Shown here in pieces: positions 5,352 to 44,666 of a DNA stretch of 64,000 nucleotides; within the stretch, counting starts at the first letter, position 1, and each line of letters opens with the position of its first letter. The stretch covers positions 32,001 to 96,000 of the IMG/VR virus record IMGVR_UViG_3300036770_002724, one strand, 5' to 3'. The position numbers and the translations under genes are program-made. The DNA comes from a virus. The notes beneath the pieces are model-generated. The model saw only the letters and a program-made list of their open reading frames with translations, did not search any database and was not told the origin of the DNA.

Positions 5352-5382
5352 CTCTATCAGGCTCCCCTAGTCAGAGGAGCCT

Positions 5383-6717: not shown

Positions 6718-6733
6718 GTATTCGAGGCGTGTC

Positions 6734-10904: not shown

Positions 10905-11876
10905 ATGATGAGCAAGCTGACCAAGAAAGGCGCGCAGGCCGTGACGGCGGACCTTGATCGCCTCGCCAATCTGTTCCAGACGAACCACAAGGTGCTCGGT
11001 GTCCCCGCGCGTATCGCGACGGATTTCGCCTACCGGCTCGATCTTCTGTCGGACACCATCGAAAAGAAGGCGGGACTTCGTCGTACCGCCCTGACCGGCG
11101 ATGATGTTTTTCAGGAGTCGGGTTTCGATCCCGAGGCTATCGGGATGGAGCAGGACGGCCCCCTTGAGACCGTGGACTCGGACGAGCCCTGGATGGCGGG
11201 CGAGTTCACCGCCCAAGAGAACCGGGAGCTTCGCGAGCTTCAGCAGGCGGGAGCCCTTGGCCCCGAGGTCGTGGACGGTCCCCGTGCTCCGACTCCGGGG
11301 AAGCAGGCGGCGCTCGCTCGTCTGGATGCTGCCAACCGAAATCTTCTTCGCCTCGCGAAGACCTCGCCCCGTCTCGCCGGGGGTCTGACCCGTCTCGCGG
11401 CTCAGGTTCTCAATGTCAAGGCTGGCTACCTTGAGGGCCAGGTCTCGATGGGCCACGTCGCCAAGACCGTGAAGGCGGCGAAGCTCGCCGCCGAGCAGGT
11501 CGAGAAGTCTGAGGAGAAGGAAGCCGAGGAGAAGGAGCCGGGCGAGGAGAAGAAGGTCGCCAAGCTCGTCGCGATGGCTCACCGGATCGCTTCCAACACG
11601 CGCAAGGTTGCGAGGGTCGCGGATGCGTACATGCTCCTAGATTTCATGCAGAATTCTTGGGAGCACTACGAGTCCGTGTCTGAAGCGGTTCCACAAATCG
11701 TCAAACTTGGTTTCCCGTCTACCTTCGCCAAGGCTTTTCTCCAAGCGTGGGTGAAGAACCGTATTGGTTTGGTGCCGTTCAGGCAACGGACGAAAGCGGG
11801 AGCCAAGTTCATCGCAGATATGGCTTCGGAGCACGGGGTTCCCATCGATCCGGACTTCATCGTAGAGTGGGGCTGA
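10905..11876 (+). CDS. Putative internal head / scaffold-associated protein
   Basis: SD AAGGAG before ATGATG 10905/10908; acidic and Ala-rich with RRTA, KQAA and RIAS..KVARVA motifs. Confidence 0.5.
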   Translation: MMSKLTKKGAQAVTADLDRLANLFQTNHKVLGVPARIATDFAYRLDLLSDTIEKKAGLRRTALTGDDVFQESGFDPEAIGMEQDGPLETVDSDEPWMAGEFTAQENRELRELQQAGALGPEVVDGPRAPTPGKQAALARLDAANRNLLRLAKTSPRLAGGLTRLAAQVLNVKAGYLEGQVSMGHVAKTVKAAKLAAEQVEKSEEKEAEEKEPGEEKKVAKLVAMAHRIASNTRKVARVADAYMLLDFMQNSWEHYESVSEAVPQIVKLGFPSTFAKAFLQAWVKNRIGLVPFRQRTKAGAKFIADMASEHGVPIDPDFIVEWG

Positions 11877-15280: not shown

Positions 15281-15328
15281 GGGCGAATGGAACGCAACGC
15301 AGTCGCCATTCATGCAAAGGAGAATCAA

Positions 15329-27854: not shown

Positions 27855-27922
27855 TTTTCCGAATAGGCTCCCTATAACTTTGGCTTCCTTGAAGAAGGCC
27901 CGTGGGCCTTGGGAGAACCGAA

Positions 27923-29181: not shown

Positions 29182-30372
29182 ATGGCTCGTGCATATATCT
29201 GTCTCGCCCGAAACGACTTGGAGGATAACCTTCTTCAAGTCCTCGACCTCGTCCCGAACACCTCGCAACTGAACCCGATTTATCAGGGTCAGGGGCAGAC
29301 GGGGTATCTGACTTGGTTCCCGCAGAACGATGCGGTCGCCCTCACGGCGGGTCCGCCCGTGACCGTGAACTCGACTGTCTACGGCGTCCGGGCCTACCTG
29401 CTCGACTCCATCGACGATCAGTCGGGCGGCGGAAACGCCCCCATGTCGGTAGCCTCGGCTAACCTCGTCTCCATCGCGATCCTCAACCGGGTCGCCCAAG
29501 GGCTTCCGCTCACGGGAGCGGCTCTCGATTCTCTCGTGGGCGGGCTCCTCACCGGGTCGGACTTCACCGGGGCTACTGCTCCGGGTTCGACCTCGCTTGG
29601 AGTCGTCGAGGAGCTTCTTCGTATCCTCGCCGGAGAGGTTTACCGGGTGTCGTCTGGTGCGGCCTTGAGCGACGGCGGCGGCGCCTTCCACGGGGCCAAG
29701 GTCGGCGTCTTCGTGACCGCTCCGAACATCGTTCAGGATCTCGGCTTCGGCTCGGGCGGAATCAGTGCGGCTTTTGGCCTCCCGGTCATCCCGACGACCG
29801 TTCCGGTCCAGACGGGAACCCAGGACGTCAACTTCCGGCGTATCCGGCCCATTCAGGATACGGGCGAGCTTGCGATGTCCACGGCGACGGGCGTGCTCTC
29901 GAAGCTGGACCTGGCTTCGTACTCGTTCCGTAACCCGTCTTACATCTACGCGCCGAACACCAGCACCATCACCTGCGGAAGCCTCGCGGCGGCGACGAAC
30001 GACGTGGTTTACATCAACGGCGTCGCCTTTACCGCGATTGCGGGTGCGGCGAACCCGGCGCTCCAGCAGTTCGCGGACATCACCCAGGGTGCGGCGACTC
30101 CGACGGCGGTCGCCGCTTCGCTTCGGACGGCGATCAATGACGCGGCGAGCGTGGCCCTCACCGGGATGACCTCGCCGGTCGCGAACGTCGGCCCCGCGAT
30201 CACGGTACGTCAGGATTCGGGAAACCAGTTCTGGTTCTCGACCAACGCTCCGGCTCGGGTGACCTTCGGAAGCCTTCCGGCGGGTGCCGCTCAGGGCGTC
30301 CAGGGGTCGCAGTTGATCTCGACCTCGGCTCGGGCTGCGACCGTGTACGACGCCTCCGGCAACGTCATCTGA
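29182..30372 (+). CDS. Structural paralog 2 of four
   Basis: YICLARNDLEDNLLQVLDLVPNTSQ; C-terminus ATVYDASGNVI; insertion NDVVYINGVAF. Confidence 0.7.
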   Translation: MARAYICLARNDLEDNLLQVLDLVPNTSQLNPIYQGQGQTGYLTWFPQNDAVALTAGPPVTVNSTVYGVRAYLLDSIDDQSGGGNAPMSVASANLVSIAILNRVAQGLPLTGAALDSLVGGLLTGSDFTGATAPGSTSLGVVEELLRILAGEVYRVSSGAALSDGGGAFHGAKVGVFVTAPNIVQDLGFGSGGISAAFGLPVIPTTVPVQTGTQDVNFRRIRPIQDTGELAMSTATGVLSKLDLASYSFRNPSYIYAPNTSTITCGSLAAATNDVVYINGVAFTAIAGAANPALQQFADITQGAATPTAVAASLRTAINDAASVALTGMTSPVANVGPAITVRQDSGNQFWFSTNAPARVTFGSLPAGAAQGVQGSQLISTSARAATVYDASGNVI

Positions 30373-30440: not shown

Positions 30441-31325
30441 ATGACCCGTGCTTTTATCGTCCTGGGGCGAAACGACCTGAGCCCGAACGGTCTTCAGGTG
30501 CTCGATCTGTTCCCGAACTCGTCGCGGCGGAACCTGATCTATGACCCCGCCGGACAGACGGGCTATCTATCGTTCTTCCGCCAGAACGACCTCCCGACCG
30601 TCACGGGGGCCGGTCCCATCACCGCCTCCTCGACCGTCTACGGTCTTCGGGCTTACCTGCTGTCGAACATCGACAACCAGGCGGCGGGCGGCGGAAACCA
30701 CAACACTCCCTCGGTCGCCAACTGCACCACCATCGCGAACGCGATTCTTTCGGCGGTCAACGCCGGGACGGCCCTTACCGCAGCCGTGGTGGACGGTCTC
30801 GTGGCGGCGACGTGCGCTAACTCCGACCTCACGGGCGGGACGGCGGCAAGCTCTCAGTCTACGGGGTCCATCGTTGGGCTTCTCCGCGTGCTTTCCGGCG
30901 AGGTGTACCGGCTGTCCTCGGGCGCCGTGGTGGCGGCGGGCGTCGGGGCGACCTTCGTGGGAAACGTCGGCGCTTTCGTGACGGCTCCCGACCTGACGCC
31001 TTCGACCGGCCTCGGTGGCGGGATGAACGGCGGAGCGGATCCGGCCTACGGTTTTCCGGTTGTCCGGTATCAGGCTCCGGCGCAGTCGGGGACTCGCGAT
31101 CTGACTTTCCGCAACGTCCGTCGCTTTGATGTGAACACCTATCTCACGCTGTCCGCGAGCGTAGGGGCTCTGTCGAAGCTGGATTCGGCCACCTTCTCGT
31201 GGTTCAACCCCGGCTTCACTTACGTCGCCTCGACGGGAACGGCGCTTTCGGTTACGGGCGCGAACCTCACGAGCTACGTCCAGCGGGGCGTGACCGTGTA
31301 CAGCGAGACCGGAACCCCGCTCTGA
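30441..31325 (+). CDS. Structural paralog 3 of four
   Basis: FIVLGRNDLSPNGLQVLDLFPNSS..YDPAGQTGY; C-terminus VTVYSETGTPL. Confidence 0.7.
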   Translation: MTRAFIVLGRNDLSPNGLQVLDLFPNSSRRNLIYDPAGQTGYLSFFRQNDLPTVTGAGPITASSTVYGLRAYLLSNIDNQAAGGGNHNTPSVANCTTIANAILSAVNAGTALTAAVVDGLVAATCANSDLTGGTAASSQSTGSIVGLLRVLSGEVYRLSSGAVVAAGVGATFVGNVGAFVTAPDLTPSTGLGGGMNGGADPAYGFPVVRYQAPAQSGTRDLTFRNVRRFDVNTYLTLSASVGALSKLDSATFSWFNPGFTYVASTGTALSVTGANLTSYVQRGVTVYSETGTPL

Positions 31326-31336
31326 GGAAACAAAAA

Positions 31337-31693
31337 ATGTCGAACCTACGAAAGTCACTTATCCGACTCGCCCGCTCCAATCCTGAGATTCGCGAGCACG
31401 TTTTGCCTTTGCTGAAGGCTGACAAGGTTTCGAGTTTCAGAGATCCCAAGCAGATGTCCGAAGAAAAGGCGCTGGGCATGGTAGACGAGATCCTGGCTGA
31501 AGTGGGCGGGAGGGCGAAAGACAGTATAGCGTCTATCCGAGTCGAGATCAGAGAGTTCATCGAGCAAGAGCGTGCTATTGAACGGGCTTGGGAGAAGTGG
31601 GATCTGAAGGCGCTTCAAGCCTTTGGGATCTTGAGCCGCGACGAACTGCGTTTCATCGAAGAGACTTGGGATCTCTATGGGTGGCCTAGCTGA
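31337..31693 (+). CDS. Hypothetical protein carrying the N-terminal LRxxLIRLA tag
   Basis: ATG 31337: MSNLRKSLIRLARSNPEIREHVLPLLK. Confidence 0.75.
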   Translation: MSNLRKSLIRLARSNPEIREHVLPLLKADKVSSFRDPKQMSEEKALGMVDEILAEVGGRAKDSIASIRVEIREFIEQERAIERAWEKWDLKALQAFGILSRDELRFIEETWDLYGWPS

Positions 31694-31727
31694 CTCCTCT
31701 TGCTCTGAATAGAAGGGTGCGTGTCTT

Positions 31728-32663
31728 ATGCCGACCGGCCAAATGTTCATCATCCCTCGGCGTAATGACCTGGTGGGGATGAACTTTTACATCACCGACC
31801 TGTTTCCTAATACGTCGCAGCGTGGGTTCTACGACCCCGAGGGTCAGACCCACTACGTCCGGTACTCGCTCGACTTCCCGGGGACGACGAACTTGGCGCT
31901 AGGGGCTTATTCTTCAGGAAGCCTGAACACGTCCCCTATCGCGGATGCGGTCGTGGAGGATACGACGGGGGGCGGGAACGATGTCTTCGCCACGCCTTCG
32001 ACCACCTACGGGCTCGCAGGATACCTTCGGGAGCGGGTGCAGCCGGGAGGTACGGCGGCGCCTCTAGCGGGCCGTATGACCGCTGCGAACGCGGTTCTAC
32101 AGGCGGCAGCAATCCAGTCGGCAGCAAACTCCGGTTCGGCATTGACCTTGGCAGCGATCAATGCCATCTTGGTGAACGTCGGGGTCGGCGGAACGGCGAA
32201 CACCGACCTGGATGGAGCGGCGTCCAGTTCGTTTGGGTCGGTTCTCGACATCCTTCGGATTCTCGCGGGTGAGACGTACCGGACGCCGGAGTTCACCATC
32301 GTCTGCAACCAGCTCAACCAGTTCCGGTCTTTGGCGGAGCGGACCACGCTGGTCGCGGGTCAGAACACGACGGTTACTGGCCAGAACTTCGTGAGCCAAG
32401 GGTACTTCGTCGGCCCGACGGAACCGGGCTACCGGCTTCTCCCGACGTACATCGAGTCCGGCTACTTTCACGTCTCGGTCGCGGCAGGCTACCTCGCCGC
32501 CCACAAGAATCCTGTGACCTTCCGCAATCCTGTTTTCGCCTATACCGCAGCGGCGGTTACCCCGTTTCTCCCTCGTGCCTATGCCTTGGACGGTACGGCA
32601 ATTCCGTCCAGTGGCACTTACCCAGTCCTCGTGGTTTACGACGCGCAGGGTAACGTGCTGTAG
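31728..32663 (+). CDS. Structural paralog 4 of four
   Basis: FIIPRRNDL...ITDLFPNTSQRGFYDPEGQTHY; C-terminus LVVYDAQGNVL. Confidence 0.7.
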   Translation: MPTGQMFIIPRRNDLVGMNFYITDLFPNTSQRGFYDPEGQTHYVRYSLDFPGTTNLALGAYSSGSLNTSPIADAVVEDTTGGGNDVFATPSTTYGLAGYLRERVQPGGTAAPLAGRMTAANAVLQAAAIQSAANSGSALTLAAINAILVNVGVGGTANTDLDGAASSSFGSVLDILRILAGETYRTPEFTIVCNQLNQFRSLAERTTLVAGQNTTVTGQNFVSQGYFVGPTEPGYRLLPTYIESGYFHVSVAAGYLAAHKNPVTFRNPVFAYTAAAVTPFLPRAYALDGTAIPSSGTYPVLVVYDAQGNVL

Positions 32664-32714
32664 GGCGTCTCAGTCCGCTCGCCGGGTGGACCAGAGCCGT
32701 CAACAGGACGTACC

Positions 32715-32951
32715 ATGTCTAACGAAATCCACAAGACTTCTGACATCTACTATGCGGCGTACTTGAAGGTCGCCGGGGTCACTTTTTTGGGATCGGAGAG
32801 AGACGGGGGTCGTGTCATCTTCCAGTTCGATGCCCCCGACCCCAATGTTCTTCGCGATCTCAAGACGCAGTACTTCAATCGGACGGCCAAAGTCGTCGCC
32901 ATGACCTATGCCGACGAGTGTCGGGCGATGAAGAGCCTCACGCATACCTGA
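32715..32951 (+). CDS. DUF5659-like small protein
   Basis: TSDIYYAAYLKVAG..L...ERDGGRVIFQF pattern. Confidence 0.6.
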   Translation: MSNEIHKTSDIYYAAYLKVAGVTFLGSERDGGRVIFQFDAPDPNVLRDLKTQYFNRTAKVVAMTYADECRAMKSLTHT

Positions 32952-32956
32952 ACCGA

Positions 32957-33277
32957 ATGGGGAGCCGGTATCTTGATTCGATGCTCCCTGGTGCTCCTCC
33001 GGTCTTCTACTTGCTCGTGGCCTCGGGCCTGTGCTTCGCCTTGAGGAGCAAGATCGACCCCCTCTATGGGCGGTTCGGAGTCCTCGACCGGACCCTCGAC
33101 TGCGCCTTCTGTACGGGCCTTCATTGTGGCTGGATAACCTGGGGGATGTTCTGGGTCGAGTCCGGCTTCACGGAGGTCGTGTCCCTCGGTTCCCTTGCCT
33201 CATGGTGTCTGGCTTGCGGGTGGTTCTGTTACCTCTCCGAGACGGTCTTTGACCGGCTAGAGAACATCCATGACTGA
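32957..33277 (+). CDS. Small membrane protein, DUF1360-like
   Basis: Hydrophobic helices around LDCAFCTGLHCGW; start uncertain. Confidence 0.5.
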   Translation: MGSRYLDSMLPGAPPVFYLLVASGLCFALRSKIDPLYGRFGVLDRTLDCAFCTGLHCGWITWGMFWVESGFTEVVSLGSLASWCLACGWFCYLSETVFDRLENIHD

Positions 33278-33569
33278 TCGTCGAGTCCACGGGGTCTCTC
33301 TCCATGTCCCTGACGACCTTGTCGCGGGGGCGTATGCGAACGCCTTTCGGATCCTCCAAGATGAGGGGTCGGACCTCTTCCTCGATTTTTGCTCTTATTC
33401 TGAGAGGGATAAGAAGGGGGTCGTGGTGGCGAGGGTCCGCGTACACGTCTCTTTCATCGAGCACATACGGGACCGGCTCTCTTCGACCCTCAAAGAGCTA
33501 GCCGATGACACCCTTCCCCCGACCGAGACTTTCTTGGTCAAGGGGCCGGGGGAAGGAGCGTTGAACTGA
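33270..33569 (+). CDS. DUF3467-like protein
   Basis: GAYANAFRI...LFLDF...VVARVRV pattern. Confidence 0.55.
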   Translation: MTDRRVHGVSLHVPDDLVAGAYANAFRILQDEGSDLFLDFCSYSERDKKGVVVARVRVHVSFIEHIRDRLSSTLKELADDTLPPTETFLVKGPGEGALN

Positions 33570-33570
33570 C

Positions 33571-34524
33571 ATGTCGTTCACCCCAGGGCAAACGCTAGGG
33601 CGAGGGGATCTCGACCTGTTCCTCACGGACGCCAACGGCATCGCGACGAACGCTGCCGTCATCACCTACGCGCTCTACTATGTAGATCCGGGTCCGCCCG
33701 AGGTCGAAGTCCTCATTGGCTCTGCGACCCGGACGCCGGTCAATCCGGCCATCGGGGAGTACTACGCAGCCCTCATGGTCCCTCCGACGGCGACGCCGGG
33801 GACTTACAGGATTCGTTGGACGTTCCAGCAGTACGTCAACTCGACGCCCCAGCAGGTCGTTCAGGAGTGGCAGGTCGTTACCCCGGATACCCAGCTAACG
33901 GCGGTCCAGTATACGCCTTGTCAGACAGACCTCATCCGGAGGCTTCGGATTCTCCTTCGTGACAACAACCCCGATAAGAACTACCATTTCCGTCCGCCCC
34001 AGCACGAGGGGGCTATCGACCAGTTCAACCGCATCTTCGGTCGAATCTGGGAAGACGACGAGCTTCTCGAATACCTGGAGCGAGGGCTCGACTGGTGGAA
34101 CATGTTTCCCCCTTCGACCCGGGGTATGGACACCCTTGACAAGCTGTGCGCTGAGTATCCTGCTTGGAGGACGGCGGTCATGTGGGCGGCGATCACGCAC
34201 GCCTGTTTTGCCGTTGCTGCGAACTGGGTTGCGGACGAGTTCGATTACAGCATCGGCGGCGTTTCTTTGAGCATCGAAAGGTCGAGCAAGTACGAGTCGC
34301 TCAAGCAGAACGCCGAAGGCCAGTTCGACAAGGCCACCGAGGCGAAGGCGCGAACCGTGAAGTTCATTCGCGGTCTACAACAGCCCAAGTATGGGGTGGG
34401 CGTGCGAAGCGCCTTCGGACCATATGTAGGTAGAGGTGTGTTGAGTCCGAGGTCTTTCCTCGTTTTGCCTTTTTTCCTGTGGTTCTCGGGACTTGCGTCT
34501 TCTTCGTTGGGCTTGATGGCGTGA
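33571..34524 (+). CDS. Putative head-to-tail adaptor / neck protein
   Basis: N-terminal Ig-like segment plus helical adaptor-like domain (IRRLRILLRD, WEDDELLEYL, FDYSIGGVSLSIERSSKYESL); ends in hydrophobic tail encoded by the 76-bp repeat. Confidence 0.65.
   Translation: MSFTPGQTLGRGDLDLFLTDANGIATNAAVITYALYYVDPGPPEVEVLIGSATRTPVNPAIGEYYAALMVPPTATPGTYRIRWTFQQYVNSTPQQVVQEWQVVTPDTQLTAVQYTPCQTDLIRRLRILLRDNNPDKNYHFRPPQHEGAIDQFNRIFGRIWEDDELLEYLERGLDWWNMFPPSTRGMDTLDKLCAEYPAWRTAVMWAAITHACFAVAANWVADEFDYSIGGVSLSIERSSKYESLKQNAEGQFDKATEAKARTVKFIRGLQQPKYGVGVRSAFGPYVGRGVLSPRSFLVLPFFLWFSGLASSSLGLMA
34447..34522 (+). repeat. 76-bp exact direct repeat, copy 1
   Basis: CCGAGGTCTTTCC...GGGCTTGATGGCGT identical to 37580-37655. 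Confidence 0.95.
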
Positions 34525-34584
34525 CATCAAAGAAAATACGGGTAGGGGATAGACGTAACTAGAATCTTCGGCTAGATTAGTCGA

Positions 34585-35640
34585 ATGAGCGACCCCGTTT
34601 CTTGTCCGGCCTGTAAGAAGACGCTACCTATCAAGGGTATTCCGAAGCACGTTTCGGGTTGTCCGAGTTGGTCATCAAAGATTAGTATTCCGCCTTCCGA
34701 TTACAACTGGGACCTATATTTCAAGCGAGGCCCCTACGCGGAAGGGCTCCTCGAAGGAACTGATTGGGTACGTTGTCAATTGTGCTTCTCTGAAGGCAGG
34801 GACGCTCGTTTCAAGAGAATGATGGACCATCTCAAGAAAGTTCATTCCCTTACTGAAGAGTCTTACCTCGCGTCCTATCCCGGAGCCTCTGTACGGATTG
34901 AAGGTACTCGCCAAAAACGAGAAAAGACAGTCCGTGCCCGGTACGGTGTTGAGAACGTCTTTCAGGCAATTTCCGTAAAACGGGAGATTCGCGATTCGAT
35001 GATTCGGAACTACGGGGCTCCGAGTCCTTTGCAGGTCCCGGCCTTACGGGCGAAGGTCGCAGCGACTAATCTAGAACGCTTCGGAGTCGAAAATCCTTTC
35101 GCCTCACCAGAGGTTCAAGCGAAGATCCGAAAGACGAACCTTGATCGTTTCGGGGTAGCGAATCCGAATCAGTCTCCGGTTTTTCGGTTAAAAACGATTG
35201 AGAGCAACATTCAGAAATACGGATCTCCCGTACCTCAAGGCTTCGGATTAGAACGCAAGACCCGCCCCGAAGAGATCGTGGACGCCTTCAAAATTGAAGG
35301 TCTCTACTACACCGGAAATCGATCATATTGGGTTCGATGCGAGGGAGGAGACGGCGTCCCTAAGAACCGCAACCCGGACTTTGTGGTCTACGCGCCGGAG
35401 CAAATCGCTCTCGTCAATTCGGGAACCCCGCCCAACGAAGTCCGAACGAATAAGATCGTCGAGGTTATAGGCGATTGGTGGCATCGCGAAGAGATTGTAG
35501 GTCTTCCGCGAGACGCATACGTCGCTTCGAGGATTAAAGAGTATGCTTCGATCCGAATCTCCTGCCTCGTCATCTGGGAGTCGGAGGTCAAGACTCAACC
35601 CGAGGAGGTTCGGGCTCGGCTAGCGGATTGGTGCCGGTAG
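34585..35640 (+). CDS. Free-standing homing endonuclease-like protein (Zn finger, YGVEN repeats, Vsr/PD-(D/E)XK nuclease)
   Basis: CPAC, CQLC..H; repeats RYGVENVFQ, RFGVENPF, RFGVANPNQ; RNPDFVV..VEVIGDWWH..CLVIWESE; lower GC than neighbours. Confidence 0.75.
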   Translation: MSDPVSCPACKKTLPIKGIPKHVSGCPSWSSKISIPPSDYNWDLYFKRGPYAEGLLEGTDWVRCQLCFSEGRDARFKRMMDHLKKVHSLTEESYLASYPGASVRIEGTRQKREKTVRARYGVENVFQAISVKREIRDSMIRNYGAPSPLQVPALRAKVAATNLERFGVENPFASPEVQAKIRKTNLDRFGVANPNQSPVFRLKTIESNIQKYGSPVPQGFGLERKTRPEEIVDAFKIEGLYYTGNRSYWVRCEGGDGVPKNRNPDFVVYAPEQIALVNSGTPPNEVRTNKIVEVIGDWWHREEIVGLPRDAYVASRIKEYASIRISCLVIWESEVKTQPEEVRARLADWCR

Positions 35641-35678
35641 TCCGTTGTTGGTCTAGGGGGTTCGACGAAATCGCATAA

Positions 35679-36464
35679 CTAGCGCGTAGCTAGGTGGGTC
35701 TCGACCTTTCTCACCGCTTCGGAGAGGCGTTTCGACAGGTCCTCGAAGGTTGCCCCCGACACCGTGCTATCGCGAAACAGCTTTTTGTGTTCGGGTCTTT
35801 TCGGGGTGATCGTGAGTTTATAGGCCCCTTCCTTCCCCGTGATCCGGATACTCCCGTTCCCGAAAAAGTCTTCTCCCTGGCGAACAATCAACGCTTTCTG
35901 TTCGTTCAGGGTCGGACCCTTCCGCTCTTTGATTTTCTCCGGAAGGGGTTCGATCTCGACCCATTCCCCATCTTGGCTCACCGCGTAAAGGGGAAGCTGA
36001 TGGAGGTAGGGGTCGGATGAACTGAGGGCTTTTTTCCCTGTAAGGTTTTGCTGTACTTTGATTCCTGCCTTGAGCGCCCCCGATTTGTTCGATGTCTTCG
36101 TGAAGACGAGCCACGCCTTTCGATTCCAGTAGCGGACGCTAGGTTCCGCGAGAAGACCGAGTCCGGCGGGTTTGATGAGCGGACGGGCGTCTAGTACCTG
36201 GGAAGGGCTTCCCATCTTGCGCTCGATCTCGGAGATCGCCCTGGTCGTAGGGGGTGAGGGGTCTTCCTCTCCGACGTCGAAGAATTCAAAGCCGTCGAAA
36301 GCGGAGGTTTTTTCTCGCGGTCCTTCTCGTCGGGGGCCTGATGAAGTTCGACTGTTCCCTGTAACGGTAAGTTCTCCGCCTCTCTTTTTCAGCAGAGGGA
36401 GGAGTTGGGATCGAAGCTCAGGTTTGGAGAACGCGAGACGGATGACCTTGGACCGTAGGCTCAT
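35679..36464 (-). CDS. Hypothetical protein carrying the N-terminal tag
   Basis: MSLRSKVIRLAFSKPELRSQLLPLLKK. Confidence 0.8.
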   Translation of the reverse strand: MSLRSKVIRLAFSKPELRSQLLPLLKKRGGELTVTGNSRTSSGPRREGPREKTSAFDGFEFFDVGEEDPSPPTTRAISEIERKMGSPSQVLDARPLIKPAGLGLLAEPSVRYWNRKAWLVFTKTSNKSGALKAGIKVQQNLTGKKALSSSDPYLHQLPLYAVSQDGEWVEIEPLPEKIKERKGPTLNEQKALIVRQGEDFFGNGSIRITGKEGAYKLTITPKRPEHKKLFRDSTVSGATFEDLSKRLSEAVRKVETHLATR

Positions 36465-36555
36465 ATACGCAGGGTTCTATAGAAGGGCGAGCGGAGGGGA
36501 TCAGACGTTACGGGATTCGGATTCGTCATTATTCTTTCTCTAGCGTCTTTTAGGT

Positions 36556-37500
36556 ATGCGTCATCGTCAAGCGGCTCGACCGATTACAATTGACAAGTCC
36601 CTAATTAACTCCATCATTCATTTTCTCGTTCCGGAAATCGAGAAATGGCTAAGGCGTCGTCCGGATCAGGACTCTCCGATTGGGTCTGTTCGCAATATCG
36701 CTAAGGACGACCTTCGTGTCGAGACGGCGGACGGGTATCGCTCGCGCAACGTGAAGGTTTATGTCCACGCGCGCCCGGCTGGGTCCAAAATCAAGGGGGT
36801 GGGGTTGGCGGTTGTCGGAGGGAAGGCTCAAAAGTATTCCGACAATACTTTTGATATCCAGTTGTTCATAAACGGCGACCTAAGCCCGAAAGAGTATCTG
36901 GTTCCTAGGGAATTTTTCGGTCAACCAGTCTTTGATCGCATGGGTTGGAGGAATACCAGCCTCACTAATCTACCTCACGGGCTATACATGACTCTGATGC
37001 ACGAGGTCACCCACATCGCAGATTTTCTCCTCAACGAACGCATTAAGCAAACGTACTCCTCCAAAGAAGTGGAGGGGAAGCTCGACTCGGATCCCTCTGT
37101 TCTATCAATGTACTACAACGACCCGCTTGAGGTTCGGGCGAAAATGCAGGAGATCGCGGATGACGCGGTGCGTCTGGCCAAGCAATTGCGCCCGCTTGTA
37201 GACGGCTCTAATCAGAGGCTAATGGACACAATACTAAGGCTCAGTTCTAGCTGGCAGGAGATCGAAAAGGAGCTTACGCCCCGGAACCGGGCGCTTATCT
37301 TGAAGGCAGTCTACACCGAACTCGATGATAGGGATCTTCTTTTTGCAGACAGCCCCGCTCCGCGTATCGCCTCTCGGTACGCCCGGCGTCTACTCCCCCT
37401 ATCTTCTTCGTCTAACATGAGCGATCTACGTTCTCGTCTGGTCCGCCTCGCTTACGCTCGTTCGGACCTTCGACCCCACTTGCTTCCTCTTCTTCGGTAA
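36556..37500 (+). CDS. Zincin-like (HExxH) metallopeptidase carrying both RIASRY and C-terminal LRxxLVRLA tags
   Basis: LMHEVTH at 37000-37014, YYNDPLEVRA downstream; C-terminus PRIASRYARR..MSDLRSRLVRLAYARSDLRPHLLPLLR. Confidence 0.7.
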   Translation: MRHRQAARPITIDKSLINSIIHFLVPEIEKWLRRRPDQDSPIGSVRNIAKDDLRVETADGYRSRNVKVYVHARPAGSKIKGVGLAVVGGKAQKYSDNTFDIQLFINGDLSPKEYLVPREFFGQPVFDRMGWRNTSLTNLPHGLYMTLMHEVTHIADFLLNERIKQTYSSKEVEGKLDSDPSVLSMYYNDPLEVRAKMQEIADDAVRLAKQLRPLVDGSNQRLMDTILRLSSSWQEIEKELTPRNRALILKAVYTELDDRDLLFADSPAPRIASRYARRLLPLSSSSNMSDLRSRLVRLAYARSDLRPHLLPLLR

Positions 37501-37579
37501 GCTGCTGAACGGCCCTCCTATCTTCCGGGTTGGGGTCTCGTTCCTTTCACGTTGGCGCAAAGCGAGTTCGATTCGCTTC

Positions 37580-37655
37580 CCGAGGTCTTTCCTCGTTTTG
37601 CCTTTTTTCCTGTGGTTCTCGGGACTTGCGTCTTCTTCGTTGGGCTTGATGGCGT
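37580..37655 (+). repeat. 76-bp exact direct repeat, copy 2
   Basis: Identical to 34447-34522. Confidence 0.95.
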
Positions 37656-37678
37656 AACGGAGGATCGACTAAACGGCT

Positions 37679-38497
37679 TTACCGAAGAGCCGACCGGATG
37701 TAATCCATCCACACGTCGTCGCGCGCCCACTGGGTCGCTTGGATGTCGATGCTCTTGAGATCAATGCCTTTGCGAGCGACATAGGCGTCGACCCGGTCGA
37801 GATTCAACAGTTTGTCGTACAGCTTGCCCGTGACGAACGCTTTGGCTTGTCGCTCTACTGAAGACCCTTCAGGGTCGGCCTTGAACCCCAGCGGCGTCAC
37901 TCCGCGCTCTACGTCTGAGAGAGCGCGGTCCATCGCAGGGCGAACCTCGCGGTCGAAGTACTCTCGCACTAGGTCGTCCACCTTGCGCTGGGTGTCCGTC
38001 TTGAGTTCCTCGACCCACTGTTCCAAGGCACGGGCGTTTTCATCTTCGCGACGGGACATCTCCCGCTCGATCTTGTTGTATTCTTGGTGGGTCACCCGGT
38101 TGATTTCGTTCTTCTTATCCAGTGCCCGGATCAGTCCTGCGTACTCACGAGCCCCACCTACTTCCTTGAGGTTTCCATCCGTCACCCGCCACATGGACAC
38201 TTCCTGTTTGTCCGTGTCGTACACCCATAGGTATTTCCATTGAGGCCCACTTCGGACGCGGATCTCTCGGGCGCCGGGTCCGCCGACCTCGGGCTCTTCA
38301 GCCGTGTCTCCGGCCAGGCTTCCGGAGTGCGTGGACAGGACGTATTTCGTTCCTGCGACGGTCTCAGTGTGCGTGTTCCGCACGAAGGGCCGGATCGGGA
38401 TGATGTCCACGGCAGTTTTCAGAAGGGGCAACAGGTGGGGGCGAAGCTCAGGCTTGGCGTGGGCCAGCCTGATGACCTTGGATCGTAGGCTTGCCAT
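37679..38497 (-). CDS. Hypothetical protein carrying the N-terminal tag
   Basis: MASLRSKVIRLAHAKPELRPHLLPLLKTA. Confidence 0.8.
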   Translation of the reverse strand: MASLRSKVIRLAHAKPELRPHLLPLLKTAVDIIPIRPFVRNTHTETVAGTKYVLSTHSGSLAGDTAEEPEVGGPGAREIRVRSGPQWKYLWVYDTDKQEVSMWRVTDGNLKEVGGAREYAGLIRALDKKNEINRVTHQEYNKIEREMSRREDENARALEQWVEELKTDTQRKVDDLVREYFDREVRPAMDRALSDVERGVTPLGFKADPEGSSVERQAKAFVTGKLYDKLLNLDRVDAYVARKGIDLKSIDIQATQWARDDVWMDYIRSALR

Positions 38498-38506
38498 GTG
38501 ATTCGC

Positions 38507-39079
38507 TCAGGGTGCATGGAGGTGGATCTGGATGGTGATAAGCAGGTCTTTTGCGAGTTGCTCGTTGATCGTCTTTCGCATCCGGTCGAACCGCATTTCG
38601 GCAATTTCGTAGTGACCTGTGGGGTCAACGTCGTCGAGGTATTTGCTAAGGTTCGTTATCTCTCCCTTCTCGAACACCTGAAAAAGCTGTTTGAGTGGAA
38701 GTTTGATGCTTGGGTCTTGGCTCAAGAACGCGATGTAATCGCCACCCCACTTGTTCTTGATATAGTTCAAGAGTGAGGTGTCCAGATTAGCGTCGAGTGG
38801 TCCATCCACATTGAAGTCGTACCCCATGAAGTATGACTCCTCCACCCGGCGTTTCCCTGTTTCTTTGACGTACTTCCTGAGCCACGGGCTCTTCCTCATC
38901 TTGGCGAGAGCCTTTTGGTAGAGCCCTTCCATTTTCGGGTTCTGGCGGGTGGGCTTGGACACGTCATACCAGGACATGTCGTATATCGACGTCGACGCTT
39001 CTTTCAAGAGGGGCAGCAAGTGAGACCGAAGCTCAGGACGCTGGTGCGCGAGGCGGATGACCTTGGATCGTAGGCTCAT
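38507..39079 (-). CDS. Hypothetical protein carrying the N-terminal tag
   Basis: MSLRSKVIRLAHQRPELRSHLLPLLKEA. Confidence 0.8.
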   Translation of the reverse strand: MSLRSKVIRLAHQRPELRSHLLPLLKEASTSIYDMSWYDVSKPTRQNPKMEGLYQKALAKMRKSPWLRKYVKETGKRRVEESYFMGYDFNVDGPLDANLDTSLLNYIKNKWGGDYIAFLSQDPSIKLPLKQLFQVFEKGEITNLSKYLDDVDPTGHYEIAEMRFDRMRKTINEQLAKDLLITIQIHLHAP

Positions 39080-39122
39080 ACCCCAAGACGGGGAATAAGA
39101 AGGCTAACGAAAGGGCTGGGGG

Positions 39123-40022
39123 TCAGGGATACCGTCCTCGGCGGTGGTTTTGGACGATCCGCATGGCTTCCTGCTCCGACTTCGCCTTCTCGATGAGTGC
39201 GTACAAGAAGTTCAGTTCGTAAACCGTGATCTCCCCTTTGCGGTAGTCGTCGCTCACGGCATCATACGCGCGACTGTAGGACTTGGCACGTTTCAACAAG
39301 GGGAGGAGAGCAGGTCGAAACTCTGGCTTTTGGTAAGCCAGCCGGACGATTTGGCCTCGAAGGCTAGACGTCTTGCGGATGTTCGGCGTGATCGCCTGGT
39401 GCATCCAGTGCTCCGAGGTCTGGACGTGGCCCGCTCGGACGAACTTCGCAACGTGCTTGTCGAACTGCGACATCGGGAACGCCTTCGCCACCCGCACGAC
39501 GTAGCCCTCTGCTGGAGCCGACGAACTGAACAGGGACTTGAACGGATAGAGCCCCATGATTTTCTTGGTGTCCCACCGTCCGCGCCAGACGACCGGGGCG
39601 TGAGGGATGTCCAACAGCTTCGCCCATTCCTCCACCTCGTCCCAAGGACGAGCGTTGTTGCTCCCGTCTGCGACCCCGAACAATACGAAGTAGTCGGGAA
39701 GAAGGTCATACGCGATGGAGTGCTTGGCGTAGAGGTTCTCCCCCATGAACCGCCAACCATCGGGCGCCCCCATGCAACCGATCTCGCGAGCCTTGCCCTT
39801 GACGTAGTCGCGCGAAGGATGCCCCTTTGATTCCGTGGACCGAGCGTGACATTCGCCTGACGAGTAGATGGTGGTGTTCTCCCCGTCCATCTTCTCAGTC
39901 ACGACGACCTCTTTGCCCTCAAACATCTTCTCGACGGTTTCTAGGCTGTGCGTCTTGTCGTCAGACGTGGATCCTAGAGACCACGGAAGATGGTATGTCC
40001 GAGGGTATTTGGTCTTTGTCAT
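39123..40022 (-). CDS. ATP-dependent RNA ligase (Rnl2-like family) fused to the tag and a small C-terminal domain
   Basis: Start reassigned to ATG 40022 (MTKTKYPRTYHLPWS); motif I TEKMDGENT, GENLYAKHSIAY, FVLFGV, AEGYVVR, AKFVR; then SLRGQIVRLAYQKPEFRPALLPLLKRA. Confidence 0.85.
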   Translation of the reverse strand: MTKTKYPRTYHLPWSLGSTSDDKTHSLETVEKMFEGKEVVVTEKMDGENTTIYSSGECHARSTESKGHPSRDYVKGKAREIGCMGAPDGWRFMGENLYAKHSIAYDLLPDYFVLFGVADGSNNARPWDEVEEWAKLLDIPHAPVVWRGRWDTKKIMGLYPFKSLFSSSAPAEGYVVRVAKAFPMSQFDKHVAKFVRAGHVQTSEHWMHQAITPNIRKTSSLRGQIVRLAYQKPEFRPALLPLLKRAKSYSRAYDAVSDDYRKGEITVYELNFLYALIEKAKSEQEAMRIVQNHRRGRYP

Positions 40023-40169
40023 GGCTCGTCTTAGCCGGGTTATCCAAGAAATAACGGAGCCCCCAGCGTGTACACAGGAGGGCTTGGTGCGACGTGTGAG
40101 GGGGTGATTTTTTTTGTCTGGAACCGTGTCCGTTTTGAGTAGTGCCTTGCAGGACGAAAGGACGGACAG

Positions 40170-42608
40170 ATGCACAGCAAGTTCGCACTCCACAACCTCA
40201 AGGGAAACCCCACGACCTACTACTTGGTCGAGTCCGAAGCGGTCTCTGCGCCGACGACTCCGGGACCGAAAGCCAGCCACCATATCGCGATCCTCGATGT
40301 GTCGGGATCCATGTACGGGGACATGGAGGCTGTTCGTTCGACCGTCGAGAAGGTCTTTACTGCACAGGAGTTCAATGACCCCTCTCAGTTGATCTCCCTC
40401 ATCACCTATTCGTCGAACCCTGATTGTCGGGTTCACTTCAGCCGCATCACCGTGGCAGATGTTCTTGCTCCAGGCAGCCTTCCGCTACGGGAGATCCGCT
40501 CGCTTCATACGCGCGGTTTGACCTGCATCTCCCAGGCACTTGAGGCTGCCGAGGAGTTGATCCACGACGACGAGATCACCGCGATTTCCCTCCACTCGGA
40601 TGGCTACGCGAACGATCCGTCGCCCTTCGCGGAAAGCCAGCGGTTGCTCCAGGCCGCACGGGAGATTGCGGCTCACCCTAACGTCTTCTGCAACACGGTC
40701 GCGTATCGCTCTTCTTGCGACTTCGCTCTCCTCACGGCGGTAGCGAACCAGCTTTCCGGCAAGTGTGTTCAGGCAACCTCCGCCAAAGGCGTCTACGATG
40801 CCCTGGTCGATTCCCAGAGACTTCTTGGTGGTCGCGTAGCTCCCACGGTCGAGGTGGGGCTGGGCTCTGCTGACTTCGTCACGTTCGTCTCAAAGAAGGC
40901 TCGCAAGATCCTTGGAGGCACCGCATCCCTGATGGTCCGGGGGCTTTCGGCAGATGACGACATGACGGCTTACAGGTATCGGCGCGTTGATGAGGCGGCT
41001 TACGCGGCCTCCCCCGCTTCCGAGAACGATCTGGATGCTCTCTTGGCTTTTTGCCGGTCGAACATCGCCCTGGGCAACCTCAATCCGGCCAAGTACGCCA
41101 TGATCACCACTCGGATCCCTGACCTAATCGGGCCGCACGTCCGAGCGATGGTCAACGCGGAGGTAGCCTCTTGGGCGCTTGCCGTCGAGACCCTGCTGTT
41201 CCGCGACCTCACGACTCCCGTTCACCAGAGCCCTTCCTATGGGCTCTCGGGGGCATCCACGAACACCCTGGCTGTCTTGGATGTGCTTGCGAAGCACAAG
41301 GGCTCGTTGCGGGTGCATATGCCCACCCTGCTGGACGGTTACAAGCGGCGAGGGGTGAAGAGGATTCCGGGCACCCGTGAGTCGGATGGTTCCGTCACGA
41401 AGCCGGACTTCTCGACCAAGCTCCGGTCCAAGGAGGAGTGGGTTCCGGTCTCCGGGGTCGAGATCAACCGAGACACGGCCACCGTCAATCTGCGTCTGGT
41501 GCAGGATGTTGACCTCGTGGACTCCGCTGGGACGGTCATCCCAGAGGTGGCAGGCATCAAGCTCGATCTCAAGGACTTCAAGAACTACACGCTCGTGTCC
41601 GACGGACAGGTCAACGTCGGGCGTCTACAGGTGAGGACATCCGATAAGCGGTGCTTCTCGGATCTCAAGTCTCTGGGGGTCGCTCAAGGGGACTTCGACC
41701 CCAATCAGGGGTCCGAGATCCATCTTGCGGATCTCCCGTTGGTCGATTACGACCGTCCGGTCGGCAGCATCACGGCACAGGGGTATGACCGGCTTCTGAA
41801 GCTCACGGTCCTTCAGAAGATCCTGAACGGCATTTCCGGTGAGGCGTCTGAGGTGTTCACGTCTGAGCAGATCGTGGAGTTGAAGCGGCACTACCTCACT
41901 CCCGCTCTGTACTTCAGCCCTCCCACGACCACGGCCCATGCGGACTTGAAGGCTGCGCTGGCGGCAGGCGAGGTCGATGTTCGGACCTCGTACAAGGTCA
42001 AGATGGGCATCCCGTCTATCCGCTCTGTCGCAGAGCTTTACTCGGGCAACGCTTATCTCCAGCGGAGGTTCACGTTCACGGGGGAGGACGGTAAGGCTGC
42101 TGAGAAGCCTCTCCTTTCGATGTTTTCCCAGAAGGGGGTCTGGGGTATCAAGGCGCTTTCTTCTCGTACCAAGCTGGATGAGATCGACGCCTTGACGTAT
42201 CCGATCTACGCCGAGGTCTTCGGTCTCGACTCGACGGGTGCCCTCAAAGACCTTCTTTCTTCTATCGGTGTTGATTCGACGTCCGTGCTGGATGCCTTGG
42301 CTCATCGGGTCACGGCACCAGACAAGGTGGGCGAGGTTCTTCTCGGGGTCTCTCGGCAAGTGGACGCCGCTATCGAAGCGATCTACTCCGAAGACATCAT
42401 CCCGCTGGCCTTCTACGTTGGGGCCACGGGGCTTGTTCCAGATGCTCTTGGGGCCAAGGCCATGACGCCGGATGACTTCGTTTCGAGTCATCCGGCGGTG
42501 AAGCTCTCCAAGGATGAGAAGGAGGCGATGTTCTATGCTCTTCCTGGGGGTCTTGTCCTGAGCGTTTTCACTTCGGCGGAGCACTTCACGACGGATACGG
42601 CAAAGTGA
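40170..42608 (+). CDS. vWA-domain protein (812 aa)
   Basis: MIDAS pattern AILDVSGSM, GLTCISQAL, LHSDGYAN; long uncharacterised C-terminal region. Confidence 0.8.
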   Translation: MHSKFALHNLKGNPTTYYLVESEAVSAPTTPGPKASHHIAILDVSGSMYGDMEAVRSTVEKVFTAQEFNDPSQLISLITYSSNPDCRVHFSRITVADVLAPGSLPLREIRSLHTRGLTCISQALEAAEELIHDDEITAISLHSDGYANDPSPFAESQRLLQAAREIAAHPNVFCNTVAYRSSCDFALLTAVANQLSGKCVQATSAKGVYDALVDSQRLLGGRVAPTVEVGLGSADFVTFVSKKARKILGGTASLMVRGLSADDDMTAYRYRRVDEAAYAASPASENDLDALLAFCRSNIALGNLNPAKYAMITTRIPDLIGPHVRAMVNAEVASWALAVETLLFRDLTTPVHQSPSYGLSGASTNTLAVLDVLAKHKGSLRVHMPTLLDGYKRRGVKRIPGTRESDGSVTKPDFSTKLRSKEEWVPVSGVEINRDTATVNLRLVQDVDLVDSAGTVIPEVAGIKLDLKDFKNYTLVSDGQVNVGRLQVRTSDKRCFSDLKSLGVAQGDFDPNQGSEIHLADLPLVDYDRPVGSITAQGYDRLLKLTVLQKILNGISGEASEVFTSEQIVELKRHYLTPALYFSPPTTTAHADLKAALAAGEVDVRTSYKVKMGIPSIRSVAELYSGNAYLQRRFTFTGEDGKAAEKPLLSMFSQKGVWGIKALSSRTKLDEIDALTYPIYAEVFGLDSTGALKDLLSSIGVDSTSVLDALAHRVTAPDKVGEVLLGVSRQVDAAIEAIYSEDIIPLAFYVGATGLVPDALGAKAMTPDDFVSSHPAVKLSKDEKEAMFYALPGGLVLSVFTSAEHFTTDTAK

Positions 42609-42612
42609 AGTC

Positions 42613-42655
42613 CCTTGGGACACCGACCTGATCGAAATCAGGTCGGTGTCCAAGG
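42613..42655. terminator. Hairpin between convergent genes
   Basis: 15-bp perfect stem GGACACCGACCTGAT / ATCAGGTCGGTGTCC, CGAA loop. Confidence 0.75.
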
Positions 42656-43165
42656 CACAACGTCATCGGACAACGCCGCTCGTTCCTCGGGTCTCAGATC
42701 GCGCGGGCTCCCCTCTCCCCCGTAGACGATCAGATCGTTCTGGGGATGGCGGACTTCGGCCAAGACGGTTCGCCGGGCCAAGGCCCGAAACAGGTCGGGC
42801 GTCCCGCAGGACGACCCTCCGGTGTTGCAGCCCAAGTAGATCACGACCGGGCTCGTTTCGATGATCTCCAGAAGACCTGGGGACTTCCAGTTGACCGGCC
42901 AAGCCAAGAAGGCTACGTCCGGTCTTTCCTGACGGCGAGCAGTCGCCTCAAAGTACTCGGTTCGGACGACCAGTTCCGGAGGCTCGCGGGAGAAGACCCC
43001 GAGGTTCATGGGCGTCCGGTCTATCGCGACCACCTGGGAGGCGCCCATGCCCAGGAGGGCTCTCGTGTGCGTAAGGTCGCCTGCTCCGAGATCCCAGACG
43101 GCTCGGTTCCAGACGAAGTTTGCGACGACCCGCTCCATCTCGCGGGTCAGTGAGCCGTAGGGCAT
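42638..43165 (-). CDS. Small class I SAM-dependent methyltransferase-like protein
   Basis: SD AGGAGG before ATG 43165; VWDLGAGD motif I, VVAID motif II, DVAFLAWP motif IV region. Confidence 0.65.
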   Translation of the reverse strand: MPYGSLTREMERVVANFVWNRAVWDLGAGDLTHTRALLGMGASQVVAIDRTPMNLGVFSREPPELVVRTEYFEATARRQERPDVAFLAWPVNWKSPGLLEIIETSPVVIYLGCNTGGSSCGTPDLFRALARRTVLAEVRHPQNDLIVYGGEGSPRDLRPEERAALSDDVVPWTPT

Positions 43166-43326
43166 AGCCCCTCCTTGTGCCCTCCAGAGAGGACGCCTCA
43201 AAACCCGTACCCTTTGGGTAGCGGGCTTTAGCCCCGGAGCCGGACAACGAAACAGCCCCGGGACTTCATCAGGTGGGAGGCGAGATGTCGAGGCGCCCTC
43301 CCGGGAGGGCACAAGGCCCTCTGATA

Positions 43327-43545
43327 CTACCGGGGCCGGACCAGCCGGTAGTACTCGGTCGTCTTGTCTGCGGCGTCGGTGACGCGCATGAAGCGGGCTC
43401 CCGGCCCGCTCTCATACTTGTCGTCCGCCGCGAACTCCAGGGTCACCATCTGACCCTGGAAGGCGCGGGGGACATCCCAGCGCCCCTCCGCCACCTTGGC
43501 GGGGACGGTCTTAGTCGCCTTGTAGTTGAAACCGTTGACCTTCAT
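43327..43545 (-). CDS. Hypothetical protein (72 aa)
   Basis: ATG 43545 abuts the 42-bp element with no SD, suggesting a leaderless or short-leader transcript. Confidence 0.55.
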   Translation of the reverse strand: MKVNGFNYKATKTVPAKVAEGRWDVPRAFQGQMVTLEFAADDKYESGPGARFMRVTDAADKTTEYYRLVRPR

Positions 43546-43585
43546 GCCATAGCTACTCGTGACCGAGCCCGGTTTAGCCACAAAA
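43544..43585 (-). promoter_or_regulatory. Conserved 42-bp element, copy 2
   Basis: 36/42 identical to 22137-22178. Confidence 0.6.
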
Positions 43586-43648
43586 CGACAGACGCTTCCC
43601 GAATTCCCACGGGGGTCTCGCTTTTTGTTCAATGCACTCAATCAAGTG

Positions 43649-43984
43649 ATGAGCACCCTACGTTCCAAGCTGATCCGACTGGCTCGCCAGCAGCCTACCC
43701 TTCGCCCGCACTTGCTGCCCCTACTGAGGGAGGCTTCTTCTATGGATGATGATCTGGAGTTGTCGGTCTATGAACTCTTTCCCCGCCCCGAGACTGCTAG
43801 GGCTGAAGCTGAGATCCGAAAAGAAATCGACGACGCCGTCATGGCTACCGTCAAATCCTACAAGAACATCGAAAAACTGATTAAAAAGTACAGCCACCTG
43901 GGCACGGAAGACACCGAGTCTCGGAAGCTGATCTGGGACGACTGGGAAATCTCTATGGAGAAGGCCCTTCGCGGAAAGATGTGA
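43649..43984 (+). CDS. Hypothetical protein carrying the N-terminal tag
   Basis: ATG 43649: MSTLRSKLIRLARQQPTLRPHLLPLLREA. Confidence 0.8.
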   Translation: MSTLRSKLIRLARQQPTLRPHLLPLLREASSMDDDLELSVYELFPRPETARAEAEIRKEIDDAVMATVKSYKNIEKLIKKYSHLGTEDTESRKLIWDDWEISMEKALRGKM

Positions 43985-44024
43985 CGGACGCTTCCCACAC
44001 GGGTTTGCGGGAGAGGGTTCGACC

Positions 44025-44666
44025 GTGGGTATTCTACGTTCCAAGCTGATTCGACTGGCTCACCAGCAGCCTCATCTGCGGCCCGATCTGTTGCCCCTAC
44101 TGAGGGAAGCGGGATTTGCCAGGCGCGCGGTGGATACCACCTATGAGACGAAGCTGCTTCCTCCTGTCCTCAAGACCGTATTGGGCGGTCTAGGCTTCCG
44201 GAAGCGTCTGGTCAACGTGAGGGTGAGCACCCAGTATTCGATGGCTTCTCCAGGTAACGAGGGCAGCCGGGGTTTCTTCGGTATGGTCAGCTTGAATCCT
44301 CCCAAGCTGGTCGGGTCCATCCAGTACGGTAACTGGGGCGGAGGCGGCTTGGGTAAGCCTTCCCCTGTGGACACGGATACGACCTCCCGTTCTCTTGCTG
44401 ATGGGATGGTCGTGGTCCAGGGTCAAACCGGGGGCTACGTTTACGTCAATCTCGTGATGACCCCGGAGACCTTTGAGTTCATCCAACAGGATCCCCGGAT
44501 GCCCCGGAAGCCCCAAAAGAGCCTTCTGCCGGTCTATGTCCTGAAGAATCACAATGGGGTCGAGCTGGCCCGGCATACGGACATCCGAAAGCTCACGGAT
44601 GAGATGTTGCGCTACGAGATGCAGACCGGAAATCCGACCCGAATCGAGATTCTTCAGGACTCGTAA
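44025..44666 (+). CDS. Hypothetical protein carrying the N-terminal tag
   Basis: GTG 44025: MGILRSKLIRLAHQQPHLRPDLLPLLREA. Confidence 0.8.
   Translation: MGILRSKLIRLAHQQPHLRPDLLPLLREAGFARRAVDTTYETKLLPPVLKTVLGGLGFRKRLVNVRVSTQYSMASPGNEGSRGFFGMVSLNPPKLVGSIQYGNWGGGGLGKPSPVDTDTTSRSLADGMVVVQGQTGGYVYVNLVMTPETFEFIQQDPRMPRKPQKSLLPVYVLKNHNGVELARHTDIRKLTDEMLRYEMQTGNPTRIEILQDS

Follow-up and report, generated by a model that had tools for sequence, protein, structure and literature searches.

A portable peptide tag on unrelated proteins of uncultured huge phages as a candidate docking label

Introduction

As far as we are aware, little has been established about how the very large capsids of phages with genomes of several hundred kilobases are filled and organised. 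We report here the analysis of a 64,000-nucleotide stretch of viral DNA, hereafter the window (positions 32,001 to 96,000 of the IMG/VR record IMGVR_UViG_3300036770_002724), in which a peptide tag of about 27 residues recurs on eight proteins. The record holding the window is 139 kb long and 26% complete (completeness figures being CheckV estimates), pointing to a genome of roughly 0.5 Mb. A preliminary description of the window had proposed that this tag addresses a variable set of enzymes and effectors to the phage head for injection.

Tagged genes of the window

When the six frames of the window are searched with LRxx(L/V/I)(I/V)RLAxxxPx(L/I/F)RxxLLPLL, exactly eight copies are found, in agreement with the preliminary description, and relaxing the pattern yields no more. 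Among the eight peptides, ten alignment columns do not vary, and six of the copies begin at residue 3-5 of their open reading frame (ORFs 31337, 36464-, 38497-, 39079-, 43649 and 44025). On the plus strand, N-terminal tags are carried by an ORFan of 118 amino acids (aa) (31337..31693, tag core 31346-31414), which follows the previous structural-region gene, on the same strand, at a distance of 12 nucleotides (nt), by an ORFan of 111 aa (43649..43984, core 43658-43726) and by a 213-aa protein (44025..44666, core 44034-44102), whose body is kept only in a relative, G001, where its homologue is placed in the structural block. On the minus strand, they are found on ORFans of 261 aa (35679..36464, core 36390-36458), 272 aa (37679..38497, core 38420-38488) and 190 aa (38507..39079, core 39005-39073). 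The two other copies belong to enzymes or enzyme-like proteins. In a HExxH protein of 314 aa (36556..37500, plus strand, core 37426-37494), the tag forms the extreme C-terminus, with a RIASRYARRL motif (from 37363) about 20 residues upstream. In an RNA ligase (PF09414; 39123..40022, minus strand, core 39294-39362, start codon inferred), it follows the ligase domain and precedes an extension of about 50 aa.

When the full 139 kb record is searched with the profile, all eight tags of the window are recovered with E-values of 2e-20 to 3e-16, and a ninth copy lies beyond the window in the same record (G000:C1:24574-24642). With their tags masked, the nine tagged proteins give no pairwise match at E<=1e-5. 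Between the copies, DNA identity ranges from 52 to 83%, the proportion of synonymous differences (pS) from 0.37 to 0.76 and the ratio of nonsynonymous to synonymous substitution (dN/dS) from 0.10 to 0.52. Since synonymous sites are near saturation and dN/dS is low, selection acts on the tag peptide, and the conservation is that of a peptide and not of a DNA repeat. Both claims of the preliminary description, that the protein bodies are unrelated and that selection bears on the peptide, thus stand.

Two local arrangements could nevertheless suggest that the tag is a feature of the DNA, i.e., a recombination or cassette boundary, a regulatory element or a recent duplication translated by accident. 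A 79-nt direct repeat (34447-34525 and 37580-37658; 99% identity) brackets a 3.1 kb segment of lower GC content, which contains a DUF7487/homing-endonuclease gene and two tagged genes, 36464- among them, and looks like a recently inserted cassette. Moreover, the tags of the adjacent genes 43649 and 44025 are 83% identical in DNA. These two genes are each preceded by a 14-nt element, GAC(A/G)GACGCTTCCC (43587-43600 and 43983-43996), which has no other exact occurrence and is possibly a local promoter or operator. However, no promoter-like element is common to the tagged genes as a set, DNA identities of 52-75% are too low for homologous exchange, and the peptide is kept in thousands of proteins with unrelated codons. 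The synonymous divergence between copies effectively refutes this explanation, to which we attach almost no likelihood.

Head module and genome setting

The genes of the window include those for a terminase (1146-3014), a portal, a prohead protease (12539-15280) split by an intein with Hint and LAGLIDADG domains, an acidic scaffold-like protein (15287-17203) and a major capsid protein of 290 aa (18139-19011). A search with the terminase retrieved 66 related viral loci, on contigs reaching 536 kb. The major capsid protein is 78-93% identical over 25 related records, in which the terminases are only 51-65% identical, a reversal of the usual order of conservation. Between the portal and scaffold-like genes, a 1,425-aa protein of the polyvalent type (6494-10771) contains a eukaryotic-type topoisomerase IB (Topo-IB) catalytic core (PF01028, E 1e-28). 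Further along the structural region, four genes on one strand (27902-29155, 29182-30372, 30441-31325 and 31728-32663) have no family match; at least the last three share the start M..A.I.L.RNDL....LQVLDL.PN.S and look like paralogues. The tagged gene 31337 is wedged among these four.

The gene between the Topo-IB polyprotein and the protease (10905..11876, plus strand) founds what we call the gp10773 family. Its scaffold-like product has no canonical tag and contains a 53-residue module, FDP...GPLE...DEPxM.GEFTQQE..EL, hereafter the FDP module. In members of the family, the N-domain is conserved, the tail is rich in K and E, and the C-terminus has a conserved HG(Y/F)(N/D)L motif; from these features, the family looks like a scaffold or core protein. 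The module links this family to small proteins of other huge phages in which it stands between two tags: over 53 columns, the two sets align by hhalign (99.2%, E 2e-19) and also by BLASTP. The FDP module is hence itself portable, being found in the head-module family and in small tag-bearing proteins (P0020, P0012, P0002 and others). Other short motifs accompany the tags, namely AGCEKLPxGPMRxNC, (V/M)P(E/P)(A/Q)FK and EW(K)xHKxxHPxA...H(T)I. A stretch of gp10773 that resembled a degenerate tag (NLLRLAKTSPRL...) was rejected, its score against the tag hidden Markov model (HMM) being negative and the profile-profile alignment ending before it.

A second short motif is found in the head module. 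Several head-module proteins end in R(V/I)A(S/R)R(Y/W)L, which also recurs along the tail of a CCA-type nucleotidyltransferase. Sites of this RVASRYL type are 6544-6702, 12272, 25149, 26618 and 37363 in the window and C1:29126 in the remainder of the record. The motif is nearly absent among tag-family matches (1/154).

Sequence and predicted structure of the tag

Over 374 retrieved instances, the tag reads (S)-L-R-s-k-[LV]-I-R-L-A-[HY]-x-x-P-E-L-R-x-[HD]-L-L-P-L-L-K-(E/K)-A-(A/G). It is basic and amphipathic, with a mean charge of +2.6. The tag is N-terminal in 172 of these instances, internal in 146 and C-terminal in 56, in a set skewed toward multi-copy proteins by the summing of scores across copies; in whole genomes, the commonest form is a single N-terminal tag on a small ORFan. 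Many matches are low-complexity, K/E-rich proteins with two to seven tags each and other short recurrent motifs, and tandem tags separated by linkers of 5-13 aa are recurrent.

Every tag was modelled by AlphaFold2 as a helix-turn-helix. For P0042, a natural protein of 63 aa consisting of two tags, four helices were predicted with moderate confidence (pLDDT 72.6, pTM 0.51), and two tandem tags may thus form a four-helix unit in these models.

Pfam and PHROGs contain no match over the tag, and the best match in a sequence search of the PDB has an E-value of 0.79. The tagged ORFans likewise retrieved nothing from Pfam, PHROGs or PDB sequences, and the protein atlas gave no usable match. In the literature searched, which covered the motif itself and capsid targeting or targeting peptides in jumbo and huge phages, the tag is not described.

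Distribution among phages

The profile of the eight tags, run against 1.84 billion representative proteins, retrieved 3,711 clusters at E<=1e-3, of which 498 at E<=1e-10; because one and the same profile retrieves so many clusters, a chance origin of the tag is excluded. The tag is present in 16 of 28 terminase-related huge-phage records, with 11 copies in a genome of 485 kb, 8 in one of 536 kb and up to 15 in a fragment of 167 kb. These matches, on diverse protein bodies in related phages, are what the portable label put forward in the preliminary description would lead one to expect. The records examined hold 8-15 tagged genes each, many of these records being partial. A dense cluster of tagged genes occupies positions 3822-8586 of one of the related loci (L129, IMGVR_UViG_3300009514_000374), one product of which, over 1,000 aa long, has repeats of a DGHHRWAA (ParB-like nuclease) module in alternation with tags.

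Using a degenerate back-translation of the invariant core, 98 stretches were found in viral contigs. The same core retrieved only four genuine tags from 596 Gb of bacterial and archaeal genomes, all on contigs of 1.3-36 kb from metagenome-assembled genomes, which may be mis-binned phage DNA. The tag appears to be specific to this group of huge phages.

Portability and turnover of tagged proteins

The RNA ligase of the window illustrates how the tag is acquired. Its orthologues in G001 and in a second relative, G002, are devoid of the tag and stop exactly where the window ligase enters it, and the C-terminal extension of the latter matches P0223, one of the small tagged proteins that the tag search brought up. 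Because the orthologues end before the tag and the extension matches P0223, the window protein reads as a fusion of a ligase with a small N-tagged ORF, in line with the earlier proposal that new genes are recruited by acquiring the label.

Most tagged proteins are ORFans. Tagged enzymes of the window are the RNA ligase and the HExxH protein, and elsewhere tags are joined to ART-PolyVal, 2H-SAK phosphoesterase, RelA/SpoT, WGR, pentapeptide-repeat and GNAT domains and to a borderline ParB-like nuclease. When tag-masked bodies were compared, 156 of 279 fell into one single-linkage cluster; a single large body family was rejected, this cluster being held together by low-complexity linkers and short motifs and having no common domains. 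Among the tagged proteins of the window, only 44025 has a body with a clear homologue in a relative, and the tagged repertoire is therefore replaced quickly. Such turnover between relatives is as would be expected of host-interaction genes.

The tags themselves drift with the genome. Tag identity is 0.82 within G001 versus 0.57-0.70 between G001 and two other genomes, and this genome-specific likeness persists though synonymous sites are saturated. As judged from these sequences, the pattern fits co-evolution of the tags with one partner, or with each other. It also bears on another explanation, in which the tag would bind a conserved host machine (a polymerase, ribosome or chaperone, for example), giving many phage proteins access to one host hub instead of an address on a phage structure, or would be a plain general dimerisation domain. 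More than 10 positions are nearly invariant over several hundred tags, although the terminases of the phages concerned are only 51-65% identical, and this would indeed suit a very conserved partner, as would the basic, amphipathic character of the peptide. However, genome-by-genome drift speaks against this explanation, which accounts neither for the multiple copies in disordered proteins nor for the motif shared with the head module, and Pfam and the PDB show no likeness to a known host-binding motif. We consider this explanation improbable.

Docking and destination of tagged proteins

Taken together, we estimate at about 80% the probability that the tag is a portable docking peptide, by which numerous unrelated proteins are tied to a common partner or to one another. 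That all copies bind a single partner, or one another, is what we infer. In the mechanism that we propose, the tag would act as a self-contained basic helix-turn-helix module, and any protein bearing it would be recruited to one common phage-encoded assembly. The likeliest such assembly would be the procapsid interior (scaffold or core), and tagged proteins would become packaged cargo, probably delivered into the next host with the DNA. Multi-tag proteins with a gp10773-type module would then serve as matrix or adaptors, with single-tag enzymes and ORFans as their clients.

We infer the procapsid as docking site more weakly than docking itself, and would place the packaging, and probable injection, of tagged proteins a little short of an even chance. 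Gene order is part of what favours this destination. In G001, the protease gene, the acidic scaffold gene, a tagged gene of 134 aa, a homologue of gp17431 and the capsid protein gene follow each other on one strand, the structural block of this genome holds a second tagged gene, and gene 31337 of the window is likewise embedded among structural-region genes. Along with the gp10773-type module and the repertoire of attached domains, the gene order of G001 constitutes a circumstantial case for the capsid.

Several results weigh against these interpretations. The enrichment of tagged genes around the capsid gene is only 1.3-fold (p 0.02-0.15) and is not significant after collapsing clusters. Tag-free relatives carry the same capsid protein (85-88% identity), and the capsid protein itself therefore does not co-vary with the tag. 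Over the 28 records, tag and gp10773 do co-occur (14/2/2/10, Fisher p 3e-4), yet this association is essentially one split on the terminase tree: a clade of 11 records, whose near-complete members are of about 290-376 kb, is without gp10773 and mostly without tags, and the other 17 records, including the genomes of 485 and 536 kb, mostly have both. Two records have tags and no gp10773. The structure search with the tandem-tag model returned generic four-helix bundles only (Z<=6.6), under the noise level for helical models, and for the tag-FDP-tag protein P0020, in which the tags are far apart, AlphaFold2 gave a low-confidence model with no packing. The true head signal could instead be RVASRYL, the motif at the C-termini of head-module proteins. 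Finally, no tag was found in a cultured relative, the sole deposited phage match being an unannotated, uncultured genome of 485 kb.

Processing of the tag belongs to the same side of the balance. The preliminary description had drawn on phage T4, in which the prohead protease removes the targeting sequence, and this part of it is not supported: no protease cleavage motif is conserved next to the tag, and many copies are C-terminal, internal or multiple. L-K/R-E-A follows the tag in three of the eight window copies and in 38% of N-terminal copies. Glu is found at position +2 next to the tag in 38% of N-terminal copies and 23% of internal ones, and these frequencies do not support a universal LxE cleavage site beside the tag.

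Two further candidates were set aside. The role of gp10773 as an obligatory tag receptor was rejected as unproven, its co-occurrence with the tag being phylogenetically confounded and two tagged records lacking it. Contacts in the model of the tag-FDP-tag protein were rejected as unreadable, the confidence being too low.

Part of the same evidence would suit a different location, the tag being a "sticker" in a cytoplasmic scaffold-client assembly (a condensate or a viral-factory-like body). Its matrix would consist of multi-tag, K/E-rich disordered proteins, among which single-tag enzymes would gather during infection and remain unpackaged. The many proteins with two to seven tags, low-complexity K/E-rich linkers and other short motifs are consistent with such an assembly, as are low-confidence models with no globular packing and tandem tags that may, in the models, pair. 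Cytoplasmic RNA is the substrate of the RNA-repair enzymes, RNA ligase and 2H phosphoesterase, and the tagged genes are spread round the genomes on both strands. However, the module of the multi-tag proteins is homologous to a protein encoded between portal and protease, a tagged gene of G001 lies between the scaffold and capsid genes, and no compartment-forming protein was identified. Sticker-and-spacer logic would, besides, equally suit a procapsid core. A cytoplasmic assembly is in our judgement rather unlikely, although it deserves more weight than the host hub.

A broader version of the docking hypothesis can be formulated, which we offer as speculative. This clade of phages might run a sticker-and-client system, the hairpin pairing with itself or with a head-resident adaptor. 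It would thereby build a multivalent disordered matrix and load fast-changing enzymes and small effectors, up to dozens of them. Such a system would amount to a modular and evolvable cargo-loading code for very large capsids, or to a new phage-made compartment, and would be unrelated in sequence to known targeting signals.

Comparison with known systems

The internal protein (IP) loci of T-even phages are variable, and the tagged gene set described here is likewise variable. The capsid targeting sequence (CTS) of T4, borne by IPI-III and Alt, is like the tag a short peptide on unrelated proteins (PMC5694885; PMC5512222). It directs these proteins to the prohead core and is transferable to foreign proteins, and it is through the CTS that Alt, an ADP-ribosyltransferase, is packaged (PMC5694885; PMC5512222). 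However, the CTS has 10-20 residues, is strictly N-terminal and is removed by gp21. The tag has about 27 residues, is predicted to be a helix-turn-helix, also occurs at C-terminal and internal positions and in two to seven copies per protein, and has neither a conserved cleavage site nor sequence similarity to the CTS.

Encapsulin cargo peptides are portable, usually C-terminal and sometimes N-terminal, and load diverse enzymes into an HK97-fold shell (PMC8346489). The tag resembles them in being portable and in occurring at termini. In contrast, an encapsulin peptide is a shorter and extended motif, bound by a pocket in the shell protein; the tag is also found internally, and relatives with and without the tag show the same degree of capsid protein conservation. 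The RVASRYL motif is closer to encapsulin logic than the tag is and, by this analogy, looks like an encapsulin-style C-terminal loading peptide.

The scaffolding protein of P22 ends in a C-terminal helix-turn-helix, a small basic hairpin which docks a flexible, charged protein inside the procapsid. As modelled, the tag would likewise be a small basic helical hairpin. In P22, however, one domain belongs to one protein, and here the hairpin is found on dozens of unrelated proteins per genome; the structure search gave no match specific to this hairpin.

For polyvalent proteins and MuF-fusion effectors, packaging and injection have been predicted (PMC5512222; PMC7824862). The tagged repertoire overlaps theirs (ART-PolyVal, 2H, RelA/SpoT, ParB-like, metallopeptidase and GNAT domains). 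In these systems, the domains are covalently strung in a giant protein or fused to a head protein, whereas the tag system consists of separate small proteins with a common, non-covalent tag. By analogy, the tag would work like the T4 CTS, the encapsulin targeting peptides or the P22 hairpin, yet it is a member of none of these systems, because it is longer, does not depend on position, is often present in several copies, lacks a conserved processing site and has no sequence relation to them.

Conclusion

Uncultured huge phages thus most likely have a widespread docking-peptide system that is undescribed within the literature searched. The tag is a single, easily recognised peptide and offers a direct handle on the filling of very large capsids. 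It defines from sequence alone a candidate cargo or client proteome, and it singles out hundreds of ORFans that probably interact with the host. If it proves to be a true loading signal, it would be usable as a tool to package foreign proteins, as is the T4 CTS; if the assembly proves to be cytoplasmic, the tag would reveal a new form of phage cell biology.

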